Shown: positions 11,611 to 18,633 of the stretch, one piece after another
Position numbering within the stretch: the stretch's first letter is position 1
Layout of the letters: each line of letters starts with the position of its first letter
Assembly (NCBI GenBank): GCA_035293185.1
Contig: DATDOP010000014.1
Coordinates: 1 to 31,226 of the forward strand
DNA from: Dehalococcoidia bacterium
GTDB lineage: Bacteria; Chloroflexota; Dehalococcoidia; DSTF01; WHTK01
Reading direction: 5' to 3'
DNA length: 31,226 nt
The notes under the pieces: model-generated
The model's database searches: none
What the model was told of the DNA's origin: nothing
Seen by the model: the letters and a program-made list of their open reading frames with translations, nothing else
Program-made: the position numbers and the translations under genes

Positions 11611-12471
11611 TCAGGCCGCGGGCTGGCGATTGGACCGAAGACGGCCCTTGCCTCTGCCGAACCAGAGGCGGCGGCCGGACTCCCAGGCGTTACCGATTAG
11701 GAGCGCGGCCGGCAGGTAGTAGACGGCGCCCAGGGTCATGAACACGAGATACGCCAGGGTCGCGACCATCAGGCCGTAGACCACCTGGTCTTCATAGCGG
11801 ACGGGCGAGGTCGGCGGGTCGTCCAGCATGAAGAAGGCGAAGAACAGCGCTGCCTGTGCGTCCGGCGTGCGAAAGATCTCAGAGGCCGCGCCGGCCTGAC
11901 CGAACAGGGCCGCGATGGTGAACAGGCTCAGGTAGGCGCCGAAGAACGCGAGGATCATCGGCAGTTTGTTCGTGTGATCGGCCAGGTAGTAGCCGGTTAC
12001 CCCCAACGCGACCAGGCCGAGGATGCCTACGTCCGGCAAGGCGCCCCACCAGCTCTGACCAGAGCCCAGAAAGACGCCGGACACGACCAGGCCGGCGGCA
12101 GCGGGGTTGAGTACGTTGGACCAACGCGTGCGCAAGAGGTGCTTCGAGGCGATAGCGGCGGTCACTGCGAGGACCACGGTAGAGTCGGCTTCTTGTGGTC
12201 GCAGGATGAAGGCGACGATCGCTCCGGTGAGGATCGCCCCATCCGGCAGCAGCCATTCTCCGCGCCGGATCAGGCTGATAGTGAGATCGAGCGCAGCAGC
12301 CACGGCCGTCGCGAGCAGGAGGTTGTGCACGATTCGGCCGTCCGGGGCGGAAGCGATGGCGAGGACGGCCAGCGCGGCGAAGATCGCGATCAGGATGCCC
12401 TTGGGGGTCCGGAAGAACCGAAGGGATGGCAAGACGAGCTGAGCCGGCTTAGTCGAGGCGATGGGCGTCAT
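11611..12471 (-). CDS. RnfD/NqrB-like membrane protein
   Basis: Hydrophobic; DGAILTGAIVAFIL, AIASKHL, NVLNPAAAGL, FFAFFMLDDPPTSP motifs of the NQR2/RnfD/RnfE family; ATG overlaps the upstream apbE stop (ATGA). Confidence 0.8.
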   Translation of the reverse strand: MTPIASTKPAQLVLPSLRFFRTPKGILIAIFAALAVLAIASAPDGRIVHNLLLATAVAAALDLTISLIRRGEWLLPDGAILTGAIVAFILRPQEADSTVVLAVTAAIASKHLLRTRWSNVLNPAAAGLVVSGVFLGSGQSWWGALPDVGILGLVALGVTGYYLADHTNKLPMILAFFGAYLSLFTIAALFGQAGAASEIFRTPDAQAALFFAFFMLDDPPTSPVRYEDQVVYGLMVATLAYLVFMTLGAVYYLPAALLIGNAWESGRRLWFGRGKGRLRSNRQPAA

Positions 12472-13376
12472 GCCAGGTAGGTCGCCAGTCCAGGTGTCGA
12501 GATGAGCCTGCCATCAGACGTGAACATCAGCCCCTCGACGCCCTGACGTTGCAGAAACTGTGAGGCATTCTCTGCCCCCAGGACAAACGCAGCCGTGGAC
12601 AGCGCATCGGCCAGCATGGCGGAGGGCGCAACGACCGTGACGCTGGCAAGGGAAGCTGCGGGAGCTTGCGAACCTGGCTCGAGGAGGTGATGGCCGGATT
12701 CGGTTCGCCGTTCGTAGTCCCCCGAGGTGCAGACGGCGCCCTCAGTTAGAGACACCACAGACAGCAGTTGATCGGGACGTCTGGCATCCTTGACGCCGAC
12801 TTGCCACGGAGCGCCAGCGGCGTTTCGGCCCCGCACAAGCACGTCGCCGCCGGCGTTGATGGCGAAGTTGCCCAGAGGCGCCAGTTCGGCGCCGGCGAGG
12901 TCGATTGCGAAGCCCTTGGCGATGGCGCCGAGGTCGAGCAGCAGGGGTTGGCGTAACATCACGGTGCCGGCCACCGGATCGAGAATCACGTCGCGGTAGG
13001 TGGTGTCGCTGACGGCGATGCCAGACGACCCAGCCGTGCCGGTGAGGTAGCTTCGATTGAAGCCGCGGGCCTCCATCGCCGCGCCAACCGTCGGGTCGAA
13101 GGCGCCGCCGCTGTCGCGTGCAACTTCCAACGACATCTCGATTGCGCGCAACAGCAACGGCGTCACTGGCACCGGGCGGCCGGCGGTCTCACACAACCGG
13201 CGCAGCTCGCTGGCCCCGTCGAACCGGTTGCAGACCCGCTCGACTTCGGCGAACCAGCCGAACGCGTTTTCGACCAGCCCGGCGGCGCGATCGCAGTCGC
13301 CGGGCAGCGGGATCTCGATGGTGACGAGTGTGTCCATGTAGATGCGGGTTTGGACGTAGCTCCAACCGTCTGACAT
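12468..13376 (-). CDS. apbE: FAD:protein FMN transferase (ApbE family), copy 1
   Basis: MDTLVTI, GAFDPTVG, LDLGAIAKGFAID, NAGGDV, CTSGDYER, HHLLEP, ADALSTA; no signal peptide or lipobox. Confidence 0.92.
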   Translation of the reverse strand: MSDGWSYVQTRIYMDTLVTIEIPLPGDCDRAAGLVENAFGWFAEVERVCNRFDGASELRRLCETAGRPVPVTPLLLRAIEMSLEVARDSGGAFDPTVGAAMEARGFNRSYLTGTAGSSGIAVSDTTYRDVILDPVAGTVMLRQPLLLDLGAIAKGFAIDLAGAELAPLGNFAINAGGDVLVRGRNAAGAPWQVGVKDARRPDQLLSVVSLTEGAVCTSGDYERRTESGHHLLEPGSQAPAASLASVTVVAPSAMLADALSTAAFVLGAENASQFLQRQGVEGLMFTSDGRLISTPGLATYLA

Positions 13377-13381
13377 GTTCT

Positions 13382-14014
13382 CTAGCCCTGCTTGGCCTGC
13401 GCCAGAGCCTTTGAGACGGCGGTCTTGTAGGCAGTAGAGCTATCGGTGGCGCCGGAAACGTGGTTCACCGGGACCGTCTGCTGCGATACAACCGACTTGA
13501 CCAGGGAGGCAACGTCCGAGCAGGGGTAGCGCGTATTGCAGCTGCTGATCGAGGCGGAGACGATCTTGCCGTTCTGGATTACGACCGTGGCCTGGATGCT
13601 GCCGTGGCGGCTGGTGCCGGCGCCAACGTACGTGCCGTCCCTGTAGCCCGCTGTCGTGCCAGGGATGGGACTTGCCGTTGCGGTCGGAGGTGTCGTCGTG
13701 GTGCTGCCGGCCCTACCTGCGCCAGCTGCCGTTGTGGGGCTCGGCGGGGCGGAGGTCGAGGGGGACATAGGAGCACTGGCGTTGGTGGCAACAGTGCGCT
13801 GGGTCGCTTGGCCAGGCACGTCAGTCGAGACGACGCCGGCTTCGGCCGCCAGCTTGTCGACGGATGCTTGTGTGCTGACGTAGCCGATGGTGTAAATCGA
13901 CGTGATTGCTGCGGCGCTCAAGGCGAGAAGGCTGCCGCTGAGCTTGCGGCGGCTTTTCTTCACCTCGTGAACGGGCGGTATCTGGATCCGTGGTTCTTCC
14001 TGTGGCGGGAGCAT
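13382..14014 (-). CDS. Membrane-anchored/exported FMN-binding domain protein
   Basis: SRRKL followed by a hydrophobic helix, Thr/Pro/Ala linker, YRDGTYVG...GSIQATVVIQNGKIVS, and the flavinylation motif VSGATDSS (SGAT at 13456-13445). Confidence 0.9.
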   Translation of the reverse strand: MLPPQEEPRIQIPPVHEVKKSRRKLSGSLLALSAAAITSIYTIGYVSTQASVDKLAAEAGVVSTDVPGQATQRTVATNASAPMSPSTSAPPSPTTAAGAGRAGSTTTTPPTATASPIPGTTAGYRDGTYVGAGTSRHGSIQATVVIQNGKIVSASISSCNTRYPCSDVASLVKSVVSQQTVPVNHVSGATDSSTAYKTAVSKALAQAKQG

Positions 14015-14199: not shown

Positions 14200-15252
14200 T
14201 CAATCCTCCGACTCGTCCTCATGCTCCGGCTCGTCGTGCTCTTCGCGATCTTCCTGGTGCTCCTCATCCTCGCCGCCTTTTGAGTCCTCGTCCTCGTGTT
14301 CGTCTTCAACCTCGGGCCCATCTTCGTCTTCGTCTCCGTCATCATCCCCACCGCCTGTACCTCCGGCGGTGGGTGTGCCGCCGGGCGTGGATGCGACGGC
14401 AGTGGGTATTGCCCCGGGGGAAGACTTGCGGTCGTCGTCCCCGCCGTCGGAGTCGTCATCCTCAGCTTCGATCTCCAGAGCCCTGAGCGTGCCGTCACTC
14501 AGGCGCAGGACCTTCACCTCGACGTAGGAGCCCACGCGGATCGGTCCTTCGATCTCGGTGTCACCAGTGATCGCGATGGCGTGTTCGGTCTGACCGGCGC
14601 GCAGGCGGAGGACATCGCCGGTCATGGCGATGACGGTGCCAAAGAGACGATCCTTGACCTCGACCGCGCTGGCGACCACGCCGCTGTCGGAGCGGTTGCC
14701 CTTGAGGACCACGGTCTGGCCGGCGTTGAGCGAAGAAGCCTGCAGGGTATTACCGAAGCTGTCCGTCAGCACGGTATCGCTGCTCAGCTGGATCAGCTCG
14801 GCTGAGCCGGCGGTGCTGATCGTGACGGCTCCGTTGCTGATTTCCGACACGCTGCCTTCGATGACCACTGCTTCGACCCTGGCCGGGCCGTCGCCGTTCA
14901 AGGCCGGCAATCCCAGGATGAACGCCAACGCCAGGGCCGCCGCGGCGAGGGATGCGCCGGCCAGAAGAGGAGGTCGGGCGAAGGCGGCCAGGAGACCCCG
15001 CGAAGCCGGCGCAAATGTAGGCTCCCTGGCGGCATCGAGCTGTCTTACCAGCTGGAGGAGCTCCTGCTGCCGGCGTGCGGCGGCGGAAGGCGCGGGCGAA
15101 ATCGCCAGCAGCTCTTGTCCCGTCTGATGAGCAAGCCGTACCGCTTGATTGAGCTGGTTACGCCAGGCTGGGACAGTGGCCAGGAAGGCCTCAACGGCAG
15201 CGGTATCGCCGGAGAGGTCCAGGGCTGTTTCGAGTGCTTCGTCGTAGTTCAC
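14200..15252 (-). CDS. Putative anti-sigma factor: N-terminal helical domain, TM helix, two DUF5666-like domains, acidic/His tail
   Basis: GTG start 4 bp after the ECF sigma stop; one TM (LLAGASLAAAALALAFILGL); IEGSVSEIS...GQTVVLKG and LFGTVIAM...GSYVEVK...ALEIEAEDD repeats. Role inferred from position. Confidence 0.7.
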   Translation of the reverse strand: MNYDEALETALDLSGDTAAVEAFLATVPAWRNQLNQAVRLAHQTGQELLAISPAPSAAARRQQELLQLVRQLDAAREPTFAPASRGLLAAFARPPLLAGASLAAAALALAFILGLPALNGDGPARVEAVVIEGSVSEISNGAVTISTAGSAELIQLSSDTVLTDSFGNTLQASSLNAGQTVVLKGNRSDSGVVASAVEVKDRLFGTVIAMTGDVLRLRAGQTEHAIAITGDTEIEGPIRVGSYVEVKVLRLSDGTLRALEIEAEDDDSDGGDDDRKSSPGAIPTAVASTPGGTPTAGGTGGGDDDGDEDEDGPEVEDEHEDEDSKGGEDEEHQEDREEHDEPEHEDESED

Positions 15253-15256
15253 TGCC

Positions 15257-15919
15257 TTATCCTGCGGCCTTCTCGTCCACCGACATCCTGCGTTGGAGGG
15301 TTGTTAGCGCCCGGTGCTGCAACTGCTTCACAGCGCCTGTGCTCTTGCCCATGAGGGCGGCGGCTTCGGCCAGGCTGCAGCCATCCACGAATCTCAGCTG
15401 GATGACGGTCTTCTGGTCGTCAGTAAGGTCATCGAAGGCGACGAGGAGGTCGGCGCGTGTTTCGGCGTCCGTCGCCGGACTGGACTCGTCCAGCCAGGTC
15501 TCTTCGAGTGGCACCCGCGGCCGCCGAAGATCAGCCTTGAGGTAATCGGCTGTCAGGTTACGCGCGATTCTGTAGAGCCACGCCCGGAAGGGCACGCCGC
15601 GATAGCGGTAGCTGCGGATGTTCGCCGCCGCCTCCGCGAAAGTCTGGGCGGCGATGTCTTCGGAGACGCTGCTCTGCTTCGTCCGGACGTAGACCAGGCG
15701 GAAGATCGACGTGAAGTAGCGCTCGAAAACCTCTCGCCAGGCTTCAGCCTCGAATGCGGCGAGCTGACGGACCAGAGTCGCTTCGTCAGCCGGGAACACG
15801 ATTGTCTCTGTGACTTCGATGGGTCGCCTCACGGTACCCCTGACTGCCGGCGCTGTATCCAGGAATTCCTGGCTCACACGCTTTCTGTCTAAGGTTAAGA
15901 CTCCGTTCTCTCTGAGCAT
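15257..15919 (-). CDS. ECF RNA polymerase sigma factor
   Basis: AWREVFERYF, SEDIAAQTFAEA, FRAWLYRIARNLTADYL, LTDDQKTVIQLRFVDGCSLAEAAALMGKSTGAVKQLQHRAL; true start may be a downstream GTG. Confidence 0.92.
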   Translation of the reverse strand: MLRENGVLTLDRKRVSQEFLDTAPAVRGTVRRPIEVTETIVFPADEATLVRQLAAFEAEAWREVFERYFTSIFRLVYVRTKQSSVSEDIAAQTFAEAAANIRSYRYRGVPFRAWLYRIARNLTADYLKADLRRPRVPLEETWLDESSPATDAETRADLLVAFDDLTDDQKTVIQLRFVDGCSLAEAAALMGKSTGAVKQLQHRALTTLQRRMSVDEKAAG

Positions 15920-16577: not shown

Positions 16578-17129
16578 TCAGGAACCCTTGGTCTTTGCGC
16601 TTGAGCCGCCGCCGGAGCTGGAGCCACCGCCGGTGGGAGCCGAGGCTCCGGTTGGGCTGGAACCTCCGGTTGGGGCTTGAGCCGGTGGGCTCGATCCGGC
16701 GGTAGTGCCGCCGCTATTGCCCGCGCCGGCGGACGGCTGGCCGCCGGTAGACGCCGTGGTGGTGTCGGTCGGGGCCGTCTGGCGCGTGGTTGCGGGCGGT
16801 TGCGTCGCCACCAGCGGGATCGATGTGGGGTTTGAGGGCGGCGAGGTTGGTAATGACTGGCTCTGGCCCGCTGCAGAGGCGGTGACGTTGCCTTGCGAGT
16901 CCACCACACGAGAGACGACCACGACGCGGCGGATGATCACGGGCGGCGGCGTCGCGGTAGGGACGGGAACCTCTGTTGCTACGACCTCTTCAACTACGGG
17001 CGCGACAGCCGCTGTCTCCGGGCTCGCTGCGGTCCACTGAGGCCAGGCCAGCGCTGCCCACACCAGGGGAGTCGCGACGATTGTGCCCGTGACCAGGACG
17101 AGCTTCGTTCCCAGGTACTTGATCCTCAT
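16578..17129 (-). CDS. Membrane-anchored low-complexity protein with TGAS motif and C-terminal AKTKGS
   Basis: N-terminal hydrophobic helix; Pro/Thr/Ser/Gly-rich body; PTGASA at 16652-16641; stop directly abuts the ferric-reductase-like ATG. Confidence 0.75.
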   Translation of the reverse strand: MRIKYLGTKLVLVTGTIVATPLVWAALAWPQWTAASPETAAVAPVVEEVVATEVPVPTATPPPVIIRRVVVVSRVVDSQGNVTASAAGQSQSLPTSPPSNPTSIPLVATQPPATTRQTAPTDTTTASTGGQPSAGAGNSGGTTAGSSPPAQAPTGGSSPTGASAPTGGGSSSGGGSSAKTKGS

Positions 17130-17166: not shown

Positions 17167-17661
17167 CTAGTCGTCATCTTCGTGTTCTTCGTGCTCGTCT
17201 TCGTGTTCGTCTTCGTGTTCGTCGCGGTCGTCATCATCGTCGTCACTGGAGCCGTTCTTGGGGCTGCTGGTCGGGTTAGTTGGCGCGCGTGCAGCCGGCG
17301 GCTGTTGCGTGGGCTGAGGCGCCTGGCGCGGCGCGGCGGTTGCCGCCGTGCCGGTTCCAGTCGATTGCGTGATGGCAGCCGTCGGCTGTGGCGTAGGTGC
17401 GGCAGGCGGCGCAGTCGCGACTACTGGCGCGCTCGCTGGAACGTCCACGTAGACGTACTCCGTGATAACGACGGGCTCTTGTTGCACGTTCGCTGCCGGC
17501 GGAGGCGCGGCAGGCTCGATAGTCTCTTCAACGGCCGCAGCTTCGTCATTCGTTTCAGACCTGGCCTCAAGCCAGCCAGCCTGAGAGGCGAACGACATCA
17601 GCGCGAAGGTCACGACGATGGTTAGAGAGAAAGACAGGGCAAGGGCAATCCTGCGGGACAT
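17167..17661 (-). CDS. Exported/anchored low-complexity protein with Asp/Glu/His-rich C-terminal tail
   Basis: MSRRIAL plus hydrophobic helix ending ASQA; GGAGG RBS; tail DDDDDDRDEHEDEHEDEHEEHEDDD. Confidence 0.8.
   Translation of the reverse strand: MSRRIALALSFSLTIVVTFALMSFASQAGWLEARSETNDEAAAVEETIEPAAPPPAANVQQEPVVITEYVYVDVPASAPVVATAPPAAPTPQPTAAITQSTGTGTAATAAPRQAPQPTQQPPAARAPTNPTSSPKNGSSDDDDDDRDEHEDEHEDEHEEHEDDD
17179..17223. repeat. Short tandem repeats (about 12-bp period, EHED) encoding the acidic His tail
   Basis: ttcgtgttcttcgtgctcgtcttcgtgttcgtcttcgtgttcgtc on the plus strand. Confidence 0.7.
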
Positions 17662-17682: not shown

Positions 17683-18633
17683 TTAGTCTGCGTGCCAGCC
17701 GGATGTCTGCTTCAGCGACCCATCAGCAAGGACGAGCAGGCCGTGCACAGCCTCCGATTCGAGAAAAGCCAGCCCCACCTCCGGACCGAGGATCAGGGCG
17801 CACTTGGCAAAGACGTCCGCTTCCACGGCGCGAGGTGCAATCACAGTTACGCCGATGACACCGCTTTGCGCCGGCAGACCGGTACGCGGATCGATGAGGT
17901 GATGCGCCCAGCCACCGCCGACGCGCCAGCGCCGCTTTGTGGTCCAGGACGTGGCAATCGCCATGTCGGAAAGGCGCACCACGCCGATCGACTCTTCAGG
18001 CGCCAGCGGACTCGCGACTTCGACCCGCCAGGGAGTGCCGTCGGCTGAGAGCCCGGCAGCGTAGATGTCGCCACCCGCGTCGATCAGGAAGCCCCCGGCC
18101 CCGGTCAGCAGTGATCCAGCGCGGTCCGCGGCAGAACCTTTGCCGATGCCGCCGAAATCAAGCCGCAGACCAAGAGGGAGGGTTGCTTCGTGGCGTTCAG
18201 GGTCAAGGTCGAGGCATTGCAGCGATGGCGGCGCAGCCTTCGACGCATCCTCTGGGGCGGATTGTCCGTCCAGCAGCTCGAATGACGCGCCGTAGCCCGC
18301 CGCCTCGAGGTTGTCGATGATCAGCGGGTTGAAGATCCCTTCGGTTGTGCGGTGAAGGCGTAAGCACTCCGAGAGCAACGCCATCATTTTGGGGGAGACC
18401 GCTTCCGCGGCCTGAGGACGATTGTTGAAGCTGGAGAGCTCGCTGTCGGCTCTGAATCGGCTGAACCTTGCCTCGAAGGAGCGAAAGTACGTTTCCGCAC
18501 GCGGCAGCAGGCTCCCGTAGCGCCAGTCGGCGAGCATGATCTCGACGTCTGTATTGAACACCCGGAAGCTCGATTTCGCTTCGAGGCTCAGGCCATCGAC
18601 TGTCTGGTGAGGGTTGGCGGAATGACCCATCAC
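17683..18633 (-). CDS. apbE: FAD:protein FMN transferase (ApbE family), copy 2
   Basis: FRVFNTDV, RFSRFRADSELS, LDFGGIGKG, IDAGGDI, ATSWTTKRRW, HHLIDPRTG, ADVFAK; no signal peptide or lipobox. Confidence 0.92.
   Translation of the reverse strand: MMGHSANPHQTVDGLSLEAKSSFRVFNTDVEIMLADWRYGSLLPRAETYFRSFEARFSRFRADSELSSFNNRPQAAEAVSPKMMALLSECLRLHRTTEGIFNPLIIDNLEAAGYGASFELLDGQSAPEDASKAAPPSLQCLDLDPERHEATLPLGLRLDFGGIGKGSAADRAGSLLTGAGGFLIDAGGDIYAAGLSADGTPWRVEVASPLAPEESIGVVRLSDMAIATSWTTKRRWRVGGGWAHHLIDPRTGLPAQSGVIGVTVIAPRAVEADVFAKCALILGPEVGLAFLESEAVHGLLVLADGSLKQTSGWHAD

Follow-up and report, generated by a model that had tools for sequence, protein, structure and literature searches.

The natural substrates described for the FAD:protein FMN (flavin mononucleotide) transferase ApbE, namely FMN_bind, NqrB/RnfD, DUF2271, DUF3570, Flavodoxin_4 and FMN_red proteins, hold their flavin in a folded domain. 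Among the described systems, the MsrQ-like clusters (Meheust et al. 2021, eLife) combine apbE with a PF01794-type two-haem membrane protein and an anchored extracytosolic flavin carrier, and have been proposed to serve transmembrane electron transfer and possibly iron reduction (PMC8238504; 10.1101/2024.03.13.584918). Here we analyse a 31,226-nucleotide stretch of a Dehalococcoidia genome (GCA_035293185.1, contig DATDOP010000014.1, positions 1 to 31,226; the window), in which an apbE-holding cluster likewise contains a PF01794-type gene of the ferric reductase domain (FRD) fold. The subject of this work is the 183-residue protein encoded directly upstream of that gene, a candidate flavin carrier. 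It differs from the carriers of MsrQ-like clusters in having neither FMN_bind nor any other fold, and FMN is proposed to be attached to the final residue of its disordered tail. In addition, the Ferric_reduct/MsrQ-like membrane protein (FR) lacks an NAD-binding domain and has five helices only, and the ApbE of the cluster (ApbE2) has no signal peptide.

Three other described systems invite comparison. Carriers of the NqrC, RnfG and PplA type also present ApbE-attached FMN on a membrane-anchored extracytosolic protein beside a membrane electron conduit, and one such module lies in the same window, but these proteins enclose the flavin in a folded domain of ~120 residues and carry the motif internally. 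The FMN_red protein of Lactococcus lactis provides a natural ApbE site in an unstructured extension at its C-terminus, and flavinylation there was confirmed in vitro (Huang et al. 2024, bioRxiv 10.1101/2024.03.13.584918); that extension, however, folds back on the folded, flavin-holding FMN_red domain, whereas the carrier described here has no folded flavin-binding domain. The synthetic Flavin-tag (Tong et al. 2021, cited after PMC12052999; PMC9400968) is a short unstructured terminal peptide with a minimal length of seven residues that ends in the acceptor Ser or Thr. It is engineered and follows the canonical D-x-x-S-G-A-T, and the common F1 version, GVDGLSGATLTS, has three residues after the acceptor, whereas the natural sequence discussed below has a basic residue at position -2 and a free carboxylate on the proposed acceptor residue. 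A literature search returned no description of a natural ApbE carrier without a folded domain.

The C-terminus of a small anchored protein

The 183-residue protein starts with MRIKYLGTK, followed by a hydrophobic helix, a V-I-I-R-R-V-V-V-V-S-R-V-V segment and a tail of ~100 residues composed almost wholly of Ser, Gly, Thr, Ala and Pro. An AlphaFold2 model built on an 18-sequence alignment contains a single confident helix (residues 3-27), with residues 34-183 at a predicted local distance difference test (pLDDT) score of ~50 and devoid of secondary structure. The protein has no match in Pfam (E values up to 0.1) or NCBIfam, and specifically no FMN_bind (PF04205), FMN_red or Flavodoxin_4 domain by Pfam, the AlphaFold2 fold being limited to the membrane helix. 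The first-pass annotation of this DNA, made from the sequence and its reading frames, had described a membrane-anchored protein without a folded FMN_bind domain and with a Gly/Ser-rich tail ending in S-A-K-T-K-G-S, and the open reading frame (ORF), the Pfam search and the structure prediction all bear this out.

What is conserved in this protein is its very end. We selected loci via FR homologues in 60 related genomes and read the regions upstream; because this search was anchored on FR and not on the small protein, the C-terminal motif had no part in the choice of loci. An unpublished genome (G048) and its locus (L019) were excluded from all tallies. Upstream sequence could be read at 47 FR loci, which come from ~30 related Chloroflexota genomes, and in 45 of them the upstream gene encodes an anchored protein ending in [S/T]-x-[A/G/S/V/P]-[S/T]-stop. 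Upstream gene here means the one that precedes FR or, where apbE intervenes, the one that precedes apbE; its product has a single membrane helix at the N-terminus and a tail that cannot be aligned. The family consensus at the C-terminus (the tag) is H/D-T-R-T-R/K/H-A/G-S-COOH. A logo of the C-termini of homologues, of the kind that the first-pass annotation had proposed for genes upstream of Ferric_reduct genes, comprises 60 non-identical sequences and has Thr or Ser at -3 in every one (T 57, S 3) and Ser at the terminal position 0 in 58, with T in one. The other positions are less uniform (-1, G 29 and A 26; -2, R 33, K 12 and H 7; -4, R 42; -5, T 38; -6, H 27 and D 5).

Such an ending is rare by comparison with the 12,900 ORFs of at least 60 residues in this genome, in which the loose pattern has a frequency of 1.46% and T-x-[AG]-S one of 0.155%. 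The stricter [RK]-T-[RKHQ]-[AG]-S ends only two ORFs in the genome, the 183-residue ORF and a 79-residue ORF on another contig (C308), and these sit immediately upstream of the two FR genes of the genome, one each. Metagenome homologues give the same picture: all ten of the long form, in whose alignment the 183-residue protein belongs, end in [KRT]-T-[KR]-G-S, and all 14 full-length short-form homologues end in H-[TA]-R-T-[RH]-[AG]-S, so that the terminal Ser is present in 24/24. A fifteenth short-form match, the 25th overall (P0025), is a 46-residue fragment that stops short of the C-terminus and was not counted. With a short-form profile, 133 clusters were found among 1.84 billion representatives; the terminal Ser is present in 127 of the 131 newly fetched representative clusters, most often as HTRTRAS, a figure that is partly circular because the search profile included the tag. 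At -1 these 131 clusters have A (73), V (29) or G (17). Outside the tag the tail cannot be aligned among homologues, and the length of the tether varies from roughly 40 to 200 residues across the family. Members of the family clusters are annotated only as 'hypothetical protein'; the strongly conserved C-terminal tag defines an unannotated protein family.

The position of the tag at the end of a gene raises the question of whether the conserved unit is the peptide or the DNA beneath it. FR starts with an ATG immediately after the TGA stop of the 183-residue ORF (16578-16580), and the final codons of that ORF, AAG GGT TCC, occupy the Shine-Dalgarno position, as would be expected if the conservation served ribosome binding at FR or coupled its translation to that of the small gene. 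Across the family, however, the small gene lies from 1 to >900 nucleotides from FR, in some loci with apbE between them, and the tag persists when 10 to >900 nucleotides separate it from the next gene or when that gene is apbE instead of FR. The terminal Ser is encoded by TCG, TCC, TCA, TCT, AGC and AGT, hence by both TCN and AGY codons, and the stops TAG, TGA and TAA all occur, which contradicts constraint at the nucleotide level. Since Ser codons, stops and spacing vary while the rest of the tail is unalignable, selection acts on the protein, and we regard the nucleotide explanation as scarcely credible.

The first-pass annotation had also pointed to an internal T-G-A-S (residues 160-163) as a canonical site. 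If this were where FMN is attached, the C-terminal similarity would be incidental. The match to [S/T]GA[S/T] is exact, but 30% of shuffled versions of the Ser/Gly/Thr/Ala/Pro tail contain at least one, there is no Asp at -6, and an internal [ST]GA[ST] occurs in only three of the 60 non-identical homologues and is missing from the other 57, the closest ones included. The shuffles and the lack of conservation together indicate a chance match, and a role for it in flavinylation is very improbable. Of the two motifs on whose conservation among syntenic homologues the first-pass annotation had staked its proposal, the terminal T-x-G-S is thus conserved and the internal TGAS is not.

A profile search of 401 genomes drawn evenly from the wider phylum gave few matches, in a search whose sensitivity was low because only 13 candidates were scored per genome. 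In another family of the same phylum (G110, G122), the small protein (...ARTRTRAS), ApbE and FR form an operon. A search of genome contigs for the locus with a single protein returned only close relatives and two actinobacterial metagenome-assembled genomes, in one of which an acidic-tail protein, a small protein (...PTSSGS), ApbE and FR follow each other in that order.

The tag as a candidate ApbE site

ApbE places FMN on the last residue of the motif D-x-x-[S/T]-G-A-[S/T], and seven residues are sufficient (PMC12052999). Aligned with this motif, the tag in the window fits at 0, where Ser183 would be the acceptor, and at -3 (Thr180). The family tag as a whole fits at 0, -1 and -3 and partly at -6, which is often H or D, but not at -2, and one relative (L013) ends in a fully canonical S-T-G-A-S. 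In a model substrate, replacement of the motif Asp by Ala has minor effects (PMC12052999). In the same report, ApbE fully flavinylates a seven-residue synthetic Flavin-tag placed at one end of a protein, and termini work best (PMC12052999).

The genomic context points to the same enzyme. ApbE2 retains the HHLIDPRTG (HxIDPxTG) and EAD motifs in an alignment to E. coli ApbE (4xgw). Of the 20 large loci, 14 have an adjacent apbE gene, and apbE2 lies two genes upstream of FR here. Among the 60 relatives FR occurs in 29 genomes, 28 of which also have ApbE, the odd one being a 78%-complete assembly, and none of the 60 has ApbE without FR. Known substrates are scarce: FMN_bind was detected in only six of these relatives and an RnfD-like protein in only eight. 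Twenty genomes have ApbE but neither FMN_bind nor NqrB/RnfD, and 14 of those are at least 90% complete. In five genomes that are at least 92% complete and have a single apbE beside FR, we found neither DUF2271 nor Flavodoxin_4; DUF3570 gave no match in a search whose control was silent as well, and no search for FMN_red was made. Neither the apbE2 operon nor its syntenic loci contain a gene for an FMN_bind, DUF2271 or DUF3570 carrier. The nearest FMN_bind gene is 1.9 kb downstream, in a separate module that has its own ApbE1 and is missing from most genomes with an apbE2-type operon. The ApbE proteins fall into two clades that are 34% identical to each other: ApbE1-type proteins are always encoded in FMN_bind-ApbE1-RnfD-like modules and ApbE2-type proteins with the small protein and FR. 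On the strength of sequence and synteny, the ApbE2 type is a dedicated enzyme clade for small protein/FR operons. Long open frames had suggested FR-ApbE fusions, but these frames proved to be separate genes.

A number of observations weigh against flavinylation of the tag. In the window the residue at -1 is Gly182 where the canonical motif has Ala (the family being divided between the two), that at -2 is Lys, and R, K or H in 52 of the 60 relatives, where the motif has Gly, and that at -6 is Ser177 instead of Asp. We know of no test of ApbE in which the acceptor was the very last residue. In the model substrate, G-to-A and A-to-V changes each halve flavinylation, with ~50% retained (PMC12052999), and the F1 tag keeps three residues after the Thr (PMC9400968). 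As for conservation, two of the 47 loci break the tail rule (L036, ...TRAR; L107, ...VQSS), the small protein of the second actinobacterial genome ends in ...SSAN and does not fit the tag, the cluster search was partly circular as stated above, and the relatives are not independent of one another. Topology poses a further difficulty. In 186 family members the flank N-terminal to the helix has a mean of 4.4 Lys/Arg against 0.87 in the C-terminal flank and is the richer of the two in 180, so the tail is predicted to be outside, yet the 32 ApbE homologues compared, ApbE1 and ApbE2 included, all lack a signal peptide, a membrane helix and any N-terminal hydrophobic segment. By prediction, then, the membrane separates the enzyme from its proposed site. 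The conflict also exists in the canonical FMN_bind/ApbE1 module of this lineage, in which a leaderless ApbE1 accompanies an FMN_bind protein predicted to face outward, so it is not specific to the new carrier.

These deviations make it worth asking whether the tag could be a docking or assembly peptide that binds, for example, to FR on its outer face or to the acidic partner protein encoded next door and carries no flavin, with ApbE2 acting on FR or some other protein. With R/K at -4 and -2, the tag is basic and could interact with acidic surfaces or with haem propionates. It also deviates from the canonical motif at -2, and predictions put ApbE in the cytoplasm and the tag outside. Moreover, five-helix FR may need the helix of the small protein as its sixth, which makes a structural role plausible in any case. 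However, the invariant residues of FR (mostly His, Gly, Arg, Trp and Pro) include no flavinylation-like site, there is no conserved [ST]GA[ST]-like site in FR and no such motif in the 164-residue partner protein, and the invariant positions of the tag (Ser/Thr at -3, a small residue at -1, Ser at 0) are those important for ApbE. Docking would also leave ApbE without a substrate in the minimal small protein-ApbE-FR operons and in genomes without FMN_bind, RnfD, DUF2271 and Flavodoxin_4. We consider this alternative unlikely, though one to be taken seriously.

Sorting and processing signals, too, typically consist of a conserved stretch at the extreme C-terminus of an exported, disordered tail, and Thr/Ser in a basic context could accept other modifications, so the tag might mark the protein for proteolysis, sorting, cell-wall attachment or another Ser/Thr modification, with an indirect link to ApbE. 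Against this, the tail does not have the motif-helix-basic tail arrangement of sortase substrates, no Pfam or NCBIfam family fits, and ApbE is the only conserved enzyme in these operons, with no processing enzyme conserved. Such a signal seems improbable to us.

ApbE2 thus probably flavinylates the C-terminal Ser183, which would make the small protein a natural "flavin-tag" carrier for a two-haem conduit. This reading is favoured because the tag resembles the ApbE motif, because apbE, FR and the small gene are syntenic and co-occur, and because many genomes have no other known substrate. The comparative evidence accordingly lends partial support to the idea in the first-pass annotation that ApbE2 modifies an unstructured peptide, possibly at a C-terminal site outside the canonical motif, to serve the MsrQ-like protein. 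Our confidence is lower for the second half of that idea, in which the tethered FMN acts as a mobile arm.

The probable two-haem conduit and a possible electron path

FR scores 21.6 bits against PF01794, under the 28-bit cut-off, whereas its paralogue on C308 scores 30.6 bits. Its invariant His residues form two pairs, H64/H78 and H140/H153, each in a helix of its own and with spacings of 14 and 13 residues, so FR probably holds two haems. The AlphaFold2 model (pLDDT 88) consists of five long helices and matches the folds of STEAP4, cytochrome b561, Dcytb, SpNOX and NOX5 with Z scores of 12.5-13.2. FR thus resembles the FRD proteins of the NOX/STEAP/FRE group in its fold and in carrying two His pairs in two helices, but the domains of those proteins have six helices, the alignments begin only after their first transmembrane helix (TM1), and FR has no dehydrogenase domain. 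With the basic C-terminal tail taken as inside, the N-terminus of FR is expected outside, and the helix of the small protein, running from inside to outside, could fill the TM1 position. Based on these models, that helix may be a split-off stand-in for TM1 of the five-helix FR.

The analysis establishes the anatomy of the protein, the conserved tag, its synteny and co-occurrence with ApbE and FR, the intactness of the conserved catalytic-site motifs of ApbE2 and the FR fold. We infer the flavinylation of Ser183, the membrane side and timing on which it would take place, the electron path and the acceptor, and the following sequence of events would be consistent with the observations. The N-terminal helix would anchor the carrier with its N-terminus in and its tail out, the unstructured tail serving as a tether, and ApbE2 would attach FMN to Ser183 through a phosphoester bond. 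FR would pass electrons across the membrane via its two haems, and the tethered FMN would take them up at the outer haem and deliver them to an external acceptor. In long-form operons this acceptor may be a metal that the 164-residue partner binds with its Asp/Glu/His-rich tail. Short-form operons have a DUF1800 protein and a Tat (twin-arginine translocation)-signal DUF1501 protein as neighbours.

An attractive explanation for the conflict in topology is that flavinylation would occur in the cytoplasm, before translocation of the unfolded tail; if so, there would be no need to export either FAD or a folded flavoprotein. Tat export of a pre-flavinylated protein is not supported, as a twin-Arg precedes the FMN_bind helix in only three of seven homologues and the small protein has no RR. 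Put together, these elements describe a domain-less carrier family in which a leaderless cytoplasmic ApbE would load the last residue before the tail is threaded through the membrane, the helix would complete a five-helix FRD cytochrome, and the FMN, tethered by 40-200 residues, would pick up electrons at the outer haem and carry them across the cell wall to acceptors, for example the metal on the partner tail. We offer this scheme in its entirety tentatively, as one possibility.

Operon layout and implications

The features of the locus are collected in Table 1. On the minus strand the order is apbE2, the 164-residue gene, the 183-residue ORF, FR, the gene for an ECF (extracytoplasmic function) sigma factor, a DUF5666 anti-sigma-like gene and then the FMN_bind/ApbE1/RnfD-like module. 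The first-pass annotation was right that the stop of the ORF abuts the FR start, but had placed the ORF between apbE2 and FR with no mention of the 164-residue gene, which separates apbE2 from the ORF.

Table 1. Features of the apbE2 operon and the neighbouring canonical module, in window positions
Feature	Position	Strand	Basis and remarks
RnfD-like protein	11611-12471	minus	Pfam; canonical flavinylation module
ApbE1	12468-13376	minus	Pfam; canonical flavinylation module
FMN_bind protein with HVSGAT	13382-14014	minus	Pfam; part of the second, canonical flavinylation module (11611-14014)
DUF5666 anti-sigma-like protein, acidic/His tail	14200-15252	minus	Pfam
ECF sigma factor	15257-15919	minus	Pfam; directly downstream of FR
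FR, Ferric_reduct/MsrQ-like membrane protein with probably two haems, 211 residues	15942-16577	minus	PF01794 subthreshold; five helices; four invariant His
Small anchored protein, putative carrier, 183 residues	16578-17129	minus	ORF; membrane helix at the N-terminus, then a short beta-prone segment of basic character, a tail of ~100 residues of S/G/T/A/P and the conserved tag
C-terminal tag S-A-K-T-K-G-S, residues 177-183	16581-16601	minus	T180 and S183 invariant in long-form alignment; Ser183 proposed FMN acceptor
Internal T-G-A-S, residues 160-163	16641-16652	minus	Chance match, not conserved
Conserved hydrophobic basic beta-prone segment V-I-I-R-R-V-V-V-V-S-R-V-V-D, residues 64-77	16899-16940	minus	Aligned block in long forms; unfolded in AlphaFold2 monomer
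Membrane helix, residues 3-27	17049-17123	minus	AlphaFold2 pLDDT 81-93; predicted N-in/C-out signal anchor
Anchored partner protein, 164 residues	17167-17661	minus	ORF; acidic beta-prone segment and Asp/Glu/His-rich tail
ApbE2, FAD:protein FMN transferase	17683-18633	minus	PF02424, 185 bits; no signal peptide

The partner gene is syntenic in long-form loci, and the ECF sigma and anti-sigma-like genes are syntenic in the closest relatives. The two anchored proteins are not detectable paralogues, as BLASTP gave no significant match between them. The partner contains an acidic beta-prone segment, VVITEYVYVDV, of which VIIRRVVVVSRVV in the 183-residue protein is the basic counterpart, and the same opposite charges recur, as judged by eye, in syntenic relatives. 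From their sequences, the two segments may pair in an intermolecular beta-sheet. Long Asp/Glu/His-rich tails of the EDEHEDE type end both the partner (tail at 17167-17240) and the DUF5666 anti-sigma-like protein, which suggests one ligand for both proteins, probably a metal, and the adjacent sigma/anti-sigma pair with the same type of acidic tail suggests regulation by that ligand. In some relatives a C-terminal domain that looks like the DUF5666 type, as judged by eye with no Pfam run, replaces the Asp/Glu/His tail of the partner.

The second copy of the system in this genome (L047; G000 contig C308, 178-3629) comprises DUF1800, DUF1501 with a Tat signal, the 79-residue small protein (...PHTRTRAS) and FR. 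Neighbours of this type, with apbE between the small gene and FR, are found in the relatives L020, L035, L039 and L041; L044 has the same small gene-apbE-FR spacing, and L017 and L036 have a DUF1501-like gene and no apbE in between. Decayed apbE2 operons occur in L088 and L089 (G002) and L094 (G013), which have no FR and carry a frameshift in the small gene but keep the apbE2, ECF sigma and anti-sigma genes. The other small protein of G013 ends in ...TRAR and not ...TRAS. The canonical FMN_bind-ApbE1-RnfD-like module is also present in L081-L086, and likewise in L087, where the FMN_bind gene would lie beyond the contig end.

What is new here is a variant of the MsrQ-like flavinylation systems whose proposed carrier has no folded flavin-binding domain. 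If this is true, a helix, a floppy tether and a tag of 5-7 residues would constitute the natural counterpart of the engineered Flavin-tag, and the known specificity of ApbE would come to include basic residues at -2 as well as acceptors at the C-terminus. The pairing of a leaderless ApbE with an outside-facing site raises the testable question of when and where flavinylation occurs. A carrier of this kind would also explain 'orphan' apbE genes in genomes without any known substrate, and it would give soil Chloroflexota a new route for electrons across and beyond their envelope.

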